Part shown: one piece after another, positions 18,738 to 19,832 of the stretch
How the letters are laid out: every line of letters starts with the position of its first letter
How positions within the stretch are numbered: position 1 is the first letter of the stretch
Source of the DNA: Escherichia coli
GTDB taxonomy: Bacteria; Pseudomonadota; Gammaproteobacteria; Enterobacterales; Enterobacteriaceae
Assembly: GCF_044647545.1 (NCBI RefSeq)
Contig: NZ_CP172818.1
DNA: 64,000 bases
Strand: one strand, 5' to 3'
The notes under the pieces: model-generated
What the model saw: only the letters and a program-made list of their open reading frames with translations
Databases searched by the model: none
Told to the model about the DNA's origin: nothing
Translations under genes and position numbers: made by a program

Positions 18738-19832
18738 TTAGAACTGGTAAACCAGACCCAGAGCTACGATGTCATCAGTGTTGATGCCAGCAGCGCGGGT
18801 GAACTGGTTGTCGTCCAGCAGGTTGATTTTGTAGTCAACGTAGGTGGACATGTTTTTGTTGAAGTAGTAGGTCGCACCAACATCAACATATTTCAGGATA
18901 TCTTCGTCGTCGTAGCCACGACCCAGGTTTTTACCTTTAGACTGCAGGTAAGCCAGGGACGGACGCAGACCGAAGTCGAACTGGTACTGAGCAACAGCTT
19001 CGAAGTTCTGTGCTTTGTTCGCCCAACCCAGGGAACCTACGCGAGTTGCGTTGTAGGTCTGGGTGTACTGAGCAGCCAGGTAGATGTTGTTAGCGTCGTA
19101 TTTCAGACCACCAGTGTAGGTTTCAGCACGGTCGCCAGTACCGATCAGGCCAGTGTTGTTCTGATCCCAGGTACGTTTGGAGCTGGAAACTGCAGCACCG
19201 ATACCAAAGCCTTCATAATTGTAAGTAATAGAACCACCAACACCGTCACCGTTCTGCTCAAATACATCATCACGGCCATTAGTGGTCATACCTTCGCCAT
19301 GAGCACTACCGTTTTTACCCTGATACTGAACAGCAAAATCAAGACCGTCAACCAGACCGAAGAAGTCGGTGTTACGGTAGGTCGCGAAACCGTTACCACG
19401 CTGCTGCATGAAGTTATCAGAATCGTAGGTATCACCACCGAATTCTGGCAGTACGTCGGTCCAGGAAGTAACATCGTAAACAACGCCGTAGTTACGACCA
19501 TAGTCAAAAGAACCAACGTCCTGGAATTTCAGACCAGCGAATGCCACACGGGTCCAGGAACTATTGTCACTTTCAGGTTCGTTACCTTGAATCTGATATT
19601 CCCACTGACCATAACCGGTCAGTTGATCAGTAACCTGAGTTTCACCTTTGAAGCCAAGACGCATGTAGGTCTTGTCGCCATCTTTAGAGTCGTTATCGGA
19701 GAAATAGTGCAGGCCGTCAACTTTACCGTACAGATCTAATTTGTTGCCGTCTTTGTTGTAAATTTCAGCAGCGTTTGCTGCGCCTGCTACCAGCAGAGCT
19801 GGGACCAGGAGGGACAGTACTTTAACTTTCAT
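18738..19832 (-). CDS. ompC: Outer membrane porin OmpC (variant allele)
   Basis: 364-aa ORF with signal peptide, conserved barrel core and C-terminal LGLVYQF; loop regions differ from K-12 OmpC as I recall it. Confidence 0.95.

Follow-up and report, generated by a model that had tools for sequence, protein, structure and literature searches.

An intact ompC allele of the phylogroup D/F type in an Escherichia coli chromosome resembling ST648

In a 64,000-nucleotide stretch of Escherichia coli DNA (contig NZ_CP172818.1, referred to here as the window), the ompC gene encodes a porin that departs from its K-12 counterpart in several surface segments. This raises the question of whether the differences record recent selection in a clinical strain, the first-pass annotation of the window having linked them to diversifying selection and to a clinical-type isolate, or whether they were inherited with the lineage. 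The gene is very probably an intact wild-type allele of the phylogroup D/F type, located at its normal position on an ST648-like chromosome, for which an account of the pore, the surface, and the origin is proposed below.

The ompC coding sequence occupies positions 18738..19832 on the minus strand as an open reading frame of 364 codons plus a stop, and its product corresponds to WP_000865538.1. This protein scores 743.8 bits against the NCBIfam model for porin OmpC (NF007841, cutoff 484) and 470 bits against Pfam PF00267 (Porin_1), and it falls below the cutoffs of the paralogous families OmpF (487 vs. 583) and PhoE (470 vs. 599). The locus is arranged in the order apbE/ftp, ompC, micF, and rcsD, the same as in K-12 and SMS-3-5. 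Codons 1-21 form the signal peptide (19770..19832, minus strand), which is nucleotide-identical to that of K-12, with 0 differences over the 69 nt of codons 1-23; the mature chains deposited in the PDB begin at residue 22. Upstream of the coding sequence, the region aligned with K-12 at 19833..20165 (minus strand) contains the 5′ UTR and the putative promoter and OmpR-binding sites, and only 2 nt within it differ from K-12 (window positions 19913 and 20161). The small RNA gene micF is intact and divergent from ompC (20166..20259, plus strand; Rfam RF00033, 116.8 bits, gathering score 79), and the intrinsic terminator hairpin past the stop codon (18700..18719, minus strand) is identical in K-12. 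This copy of ompC is intact, wild-type, and at its normal chromosomal position. A pseudogene or otherwise disrupted porin is ruled out by the intact reading frame, promoter region, micF, and terminator.

Comparison with the K-12 reference (MG1655 OmpC, NC_000913 b2215, 367 aa) gives 91% identity, hence the window does not carry the K-12 allele. The two proteins are separated by 34 substitutions and by deletion of S184-G185-V186, so that the length of 364 rather than 367 residues, noted in the first-pass annotation, is real. The four segments which that annotation quoted as divergent are all found, at residues 43, 82, 172, and 216, each with a cluster of differences, and its claim that the gene is ompC with loops unlike those of K-12 is upheld by both alignment and structural mapping. 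The mapping was carried out on an AlphaFold model built from 75 diverse porin sequences (pLDDT 92.3), which superposes on 2XE2/2XE5 at TM 0.99 and 0.8 Å, and on 2J1N at TM 0.97. The model predicts the 16-strand β-barrel typical of trimeric porins, with long extracellular loops and with L3 folded into the lumen, while residues 22-27 appear as a separate N-terminal strand segment that is read as completing strand 16. Since a literature search yielded no explicit loop boundaries for OmpC, the boundaries were taken from this validated model. The deletion and 29 of the 34 substitutions fall in extracellular loops, which comprise 125 residues (Fisher one-sided p = 9e-10 for the substitutions). The five substitutions in strands are V24I, N165D, D208N, G216A, and I218V.

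Counted as differing alignment columns, the changes are distributed as 4 in L1, 5 in L2, 1 in L3, 13 in L4 with the deletion included, 7 in L5, and 2 in L8. On the model topology, L1 spans residues 46-55 (19668..19697, minus strand; 4 substitutions), and L2, the trimer latching loop, spans residues 83-91 (19560..19586, minus strand; 5 substitutions). L4 is the most altered loop (residues 172-196; 19245..19319, minus strand), with 10 substitutions in addition to the 3-residue deletion, and its net charge is -3 vs. 0 in K-12. The sole phenylalanine of K-12 L4, F182, is methionine in the window, and the next three residues are those deleted. L5 (residues 220-234; 19131..19175, minus strand) carries 7 substitutions, and L8 (residues 338-354; 18771..18821, minus strand) carries D350A and N357D. 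Two changes line the pore rather than being simply surface-exposed, namely G137D in L3 and R195E at the base of L4 (K-12 numbering). By alignment, Asp137 (mature D116) is encoded by GAT at 19422..19424 (minus strand) in the constriction loop, where K-12 has glycine, and Glu192, encoded by GAG at 19257..19259 (minus strand), takes the place of K-12 Arg195 in the pore vestibule. Overall, the net charge of the protein is -19, compared with -15 in K-12. The charges that form the constriction, as listed by Lou et al. (PMC3203869), are all kept (K16, R37, R74, and R124 facing D18, D105, and E109, in mature numbering), as is S271.

The two pore residues identify the allele class. A "phylogroup D" ompC allele has been defined by aspartate at G137 and glutamate at R195 (Patino-Navarrete et al., 2020, PMC6970295), and both signature residues (D137 and E195, K-12 numbering) are present in the window protein. 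The lineages that carry this type of allele are ST38, ST354, ST405, ST457, and ST648, with ST648 among those in which it is ancestral (PMC6970295). In keeping with an ancestral allele, the window gene is 100% identical to that of "strain ST648," of IMT16316, and of SMS-3-5. The last of these is presumably an ST354 strain. The D137 residue also occurs apart from this class: E. coli 116333 (locus L007, 1501-2607) has it on an otherwise non-D-type ompC allele, consistent with the convergent acquisition of G137D that has been described for lineages producing carbapenemases (PMC6970295).

A close relative has been crystallized. The mature window protein of 343 residues lies 2 residues from OmpC20 (PDB 2XE2), the two being Q343R and A347D, both in L8. 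An in-patient resistance series begins with OmpC20 as its first isolate, and most of the differences between OmpC20 and K-12 lie in L2, where the cluster is the one seen in the window protein, in L4, and in L5, with G116D in L3 in addition (Lou et al., 2011, PMC3203869). The resistance mutations that arose in the later members of that series, D18E, S271F, and R124H (OmpC26, OmpC28, and OmpC33; 2XE5, 2XE3, and 2XG6), are absent from the window protein, which has D18, S271, and R124 and is thus the wild-type form of its class.

The allele is also common. Many complete E. coli genomes, including SMS-3-5, contain ompC DNA that is 100% identical to that of the window, and their sources include human, chicken, cattle, wild bird, dog, pangolin, river water, and wastewater. 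At least 99% DNA identity was recorded in 518 of 5,430 matching records; in an evenly spaced listing of these, the records at rank 1 and about rank 91 were at 100% and the one at about rank 182 was at 99.5%, from which the identical gene would be present in roughly 90-180 genomes. No fewer than 1,000 public contigs encode exactly this protein, and WP_000865538.1 is the protein annotated in SMS-3-5. E. coli ompC genes range from 1092 to 1131 nt in length, more than 220 OmpC variants have been counted (PMC5056734), and the protein falls into 15 major groups (bioRxiv 10.1101/2021.09.21.461324). K-12 thus represents one of many allele classes, and to differ from it is the norm. The window allele itself is already known, being common, crystallized in a form that differs by 2 residues, functionally studied, and expected in its lineage.

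That lineage is indicated by the DNA surrounding the gene. Over the 24 kb that surround ompC and another 24 kb to its right, identity to IMT16316, Ecol_881, ECONIH1, MS14385, and others is 99.9-100%. IMT16316 belongs to ST648, and the near-identity to it over ~48 kb therefore points to an ST648-like chromosome, in which this allele is expected, the MLST loci themselves lying outside the window. The gyrA gene (43762-46389, minus strand) carries S83L and D87N, the classical fluoroquinolone-resistance pair, which bears out the mention of the gyrA genotype in the first-pass annotation. Together, the allele and this pair fit an ST648-like multidrug-resistant lineage. However, the further proposal that the ompC allele marks a clinical-type isolate does not hold, since SMS-3-5 has the same DNA, as do isolates from a wild bird, chicken, cattle, river water, wastewater, and a pangolin, and since the allele is ancestral to phylogroup D/F lineages such as ST648 (PMC6970295). 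It is inherited lineage background rather than evidence of selection in this isolate. Against K-12, ompC forms one of the two largest regional spikes of divergence (13.6% per 500-nt bin, with a median of 2.2%), the other being yfaL at 10.4% per kb; against SMS-3-5, ompC is 0.0% diverged.

Several features of the window outside ompC were also recorded. At the junction 56543-56555, between inaA and glpQ, 1,867 nt of IMT16316 are missing, which removes the greater part of a gene for an MFS transporter and the initial ~630 nt of one for a LysR-family regulator. The junction shows ~13 nt of overlap (microhomology), and the other nearest genomes listed also span the extra ~1.9 kb. In the autotransporter gene yfaL (47399-51156, minus strand), a 1-nt deletion at ~49007 relative to IMT16316 breaks the gene into two ORFs, 734 and 513 aa long, that lie in different frames; the frameshift may be genuine or may stem from a sequencing error. 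The alpha-2-macroglobulin-family gene yfaS (36767-41386, minus strand) is broken into two ORFs, 809 and 704 aa long; SMS-3-5 has an intact copy, K-12 has a pseudogene, and the IMT16316 annotation shows an internal stop in the gene. The window further differs from IMT16316 at 54002 and 54159, through a single substitution within nrdA and the loss of 3 nt from the spacer between nrdA and nrdB. Collinearity with SMS-3-5 stops at ~46444, and in that strain (locus L014, 47018-49561) genes for a mandelate racemase-family protein and an MFS transporter directly follow gyrA, where the window and K-12 have ubiG.

The divergence between the window and K-12 genes is concentrated in one tract. Estimated by the Nei-Gojobori method, codons 24-235 (19128..19763, minus strand; 15.5% nucleotide difference) give dS 0.59, dN 0.088, and dN/dS 0.15, although the strong codon bias of ompC makes absolute depths drawn from dS rough. 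Codons 236-322 are near-identical to K-12 at the DNA level as well (dS 0.016, dN 0). In total, 47 synonymous codon differences stand beside 37 differing amino acid columns, and 44 of the 47 lie in codons 38-224. The four most variable loops within the tract give dS 1.59, which is saturated, with dN 0.47 and dN/dS 0.29, and the rest of the tract gives dS 0.476, dN 0.015, and dN/dS 0.03; evolution is far more rapid in the loops than in the barrel. Across a panel of 12 alleles, the tract of the window class is 13.6-16.4% from that of every other class, with the others 1.3-11.9% apart. In dS, the tract of the window class stands 0.50-0.66 from those of the other E. coli classes, and E. coli and E. 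fergusonii are separated by 0.45-0.62 at ompC. At the neighboring apbE gene, dS is 0.15-0.20 within the species and 0.8-0.9 to E. fergusonii. The depth of this allelic split is the least ordinary aspect of the gene.

The segments that distinguish the window allele are also found in other combinations. Allele P0003 has the L1, L2, D137, and L5 of the window with the common L4, P0002 joins the window L4 to a long L5, and P0006, P0007, and P0041 combine K-12-type L1 and L2 with the window L5. This agrees with the mosaic evolution published for ompC (bioRxiv 10.1101/2021.09.21.461324). A hybrid ompC was also seen in E. coli TUM9754 (locus L004), window-type through L4 and with a different L5; in the same locus, an IS1 transposase gene (510-1207) lies ~290 nt upstream of ompC, on the side where other loci have rcsD. 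Judged from these sequence comparisons, the differences from K-12 are ancient allelic variation shuffled by intragenic recombination rather than recent mutation. Codons 24-235 belong to an allelic lineage as diverged as different Escherichia species are from one another, with the remainder of the gene nearly identical to other E. coli alleles.

Recent mutation can be considered in two forms. Adaptation under antibiotics in a clinical isolate, in the manner of the changes from OmpC20 to OmpC26, OmpC28, and OmpC33, has precedent in that porin point mutations of such a kind exist and that gyrA S83L and D87N show drug selection in the history of the lineage. However, the DNA is identical across many unrelated hosts and environments, 47 synonymous differences accompany the 34 replacements at a dN/dS of 0.15, and D18, S271, and R124, the positions altered in the resistance series, retain their wild-type residues, so this origin is effectively refuted and hardly merits credence. 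The other form is that of the first-pass annotation, in which the loop differences arose mainly from positive diversifying selection on point mutations and recombination played a minor part. Indeed, dN is 0.47 in the loops and 0.015 for the barrel portion of the tract, L4 and L5 are documented as being under pressure from phages and contact-dependent inhibition (CDI), and earlier genome scans, as cited in a preprint, list ompC as positively selected. Yet the loop dN/dS of 0.29 is below 1, whole cassettes are common to otherwise different alleles, and the preprint recasts the earlier signal of positive selection as mosaic recombination (bioRxiv 10.1101/2021.09.21.461324). As an account of most of the loop differences, point mutation under diversifying selection is doubtful. 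Pairwise dN/dS against K-12 gave no signal of positive selection, remaining below 1 even in the loops, and for diversifying point mutation of recent date the tract as a whole is contrary evidence, given its dS of 0.59, its dN/dS of 0.15, and cassettes recombined among alleles.

Origins by transfer differ in when and from where the allele would have come. The ompC region is a recombination hotspot, with 20 imports into other clones published (PMC6970295), and a recent import from another lineage by homologous recombination, as in ST167 and ST410, would replace vertical inheritance here. Along with ~1 kb on each side, the gene is 0.0-0.2% from SMS-3-5, where the flank median is 1.0%, and MS6198 has the identical allele. 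Nevertheless, such an import is very unlikely, as the 24 kb flanks on both sides are 99.9-100% identical to ST648 genomes with no break at ompC, 500-nt bins at 0.0% from SMS-3-5 also occur away from the gene, and the allele was already in the ancestor of ST648 (PMC6970295). A past acquisition of codons 24-235 from a species other than E. coli, in place of an old polymorphism within it, would explain why the dS to other E. coli classes equals the distance between E. coli and E. fergusonii at ompC. Exchange between species does occur at this gene: in E. coli F9792 (locus L012, 1501-2613), codons 236-322 are at dS 0.12 from E. fergusonii (locus L016) and ~0.47 from other E. coli alleles, which points to an interspecies recombinant. 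On the other hand, the window tract is no closer to E. fergusonii (dS 0.64) or C. freundii (0.90) than to E. coli alleles, the L4 cassette is in no non-E. coli protein among the best 120 homologs, and the L4 peptide, sought by a degenerate DNA scan of genomes representing 100,044 species, gave 0 matches and thus no donor species. Acquisition from another species is accordingly considered unlikely. A balanced polymorphism of great age and an old import from a relative not yet sampled would each be consistent with the depth of the tract. It is tentatively suggested, as one possible history, that the lineage of codons 24-235 dates back to the divergence of E. coli from E. fergusonii and has been kept inside E. 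coli ever since by frequency-dependent selection from phages and CDI toxins, which would make it a balanced polymorphism of trans-species depth rather than a later import. If so, the D137/E195 pair would be a hitch-hiking or co-selected part of an old haplotype.

Whatever their age, the loops would be expected to alter how the cell surface is recognized. OmpC loops are targeted by phages and by CDI toxins (PMC5056734; bioRxiv 10.1101/2021.09.21.461324), as the first-pass annotation had assumed in part. The 6104H OmpC, which has been equated with 2XE2, is not recognized by CdiA-EC536 and confers resistance to CDI-EC536, with the determinants in L4 and L5 (Beck et al., PMC5056734). The window L4, L5, and L7 are identical to those of the 6104H/2XE2 allele, the one with which the comparison was made. 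In addition, T4 adsorption needs a phenylalanine in L4 of K-12 OmpC (Washizaki et al.). With L4 Phe182 replaced by methionine and the next three residues deleted, T4 receptor function has probably been lost in the window protein. More generally, L1, L2, L4, L5, and L8 form a different set of cassettes that may present an altered surface to phages, CdiA toxins, and antibodies, and this loop set predicts a phage and CDI receptor profile unlike that of K-12.

The relevance of OmpC variation to β-lactam and carbapenem permeability, also raised in the first-pass annotation, agrees with published effects for this allele class (PMC6970295; PMC3203869). Functional data come from two relatives, the ST38 allele and OmpC20, the latter 2 residues away. 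In OmpC20, the vestibule is more than 1 Å narrower above the constriction and the entrance is more negative, but growth-assay behavior resembled that of K-12 OmpC and MIC shifts were modest (PMC3203869), which implies a small effect on permeability. Only for the ST38 allele has complementation demonstrated a permeability effect (PMC6970295). By analogy with these sister alleles, Asp137 and the glutamate at K-12 Arg195 would make the window vestibule narrower and more negative, and this may lessen the entry of some β-lactams, ertapenem included. In publications, D137/E195 OmpC is linked to slightly reduced entry of β-lactams and ertapenem, and to lineages that readily acquire carbapenemases. 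The main value of the present annotation lies in the correct label for the gene, D137/E195 "phylogroup D-type" OmpC.

Set beside known porins, the window protein shares with K-12 OmpC (PDB 2J1N) its gene, position, regulatory region, fold, signal peptide, and constriction zone, and differs from it by the 34 substitutions, the 3-residue deletion in L4, G137D and R195E, and the more negative charge (-19 vs. -15). It resembles the phylogroup D-type allele (PMC6970295) in the two defining residues and in the ST648-like character of its chromosome. However, the allele assayed in that study was that of ST38, to which the window allele is likened by the signature residues. The likeness to OmpC20, the 6104H OmpC (2XE2), extends to L1-L7, D116, and the constriction residues, all of which are identical, and the matching genomic allele in FDAARGOS_448 is DNA-identical to that of the window over codons 1-322. 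The two alleles are distinguished by 5 nt differences in codons 323-364, with R343/D347 in OmpC20 where the window has Q343/A347. A more distant parallel is offered by the GD and TD variants of Klebsiella pneumoniae OmpK36 (6RCK, 7PZF), which carry an insertion in L3. The fold is shared at TM 0.97 and so is the principle, in that an acidic change in or near L3 lowers carbapenem entry while the porin is retained. However, sequence identity is 78%, and whereas the OmpK36 variants gained a two-residue insertion that was recently selected in clinical clones, the window protein has a single Gly-to-Asp change that is ancestral to whole phylogroups.
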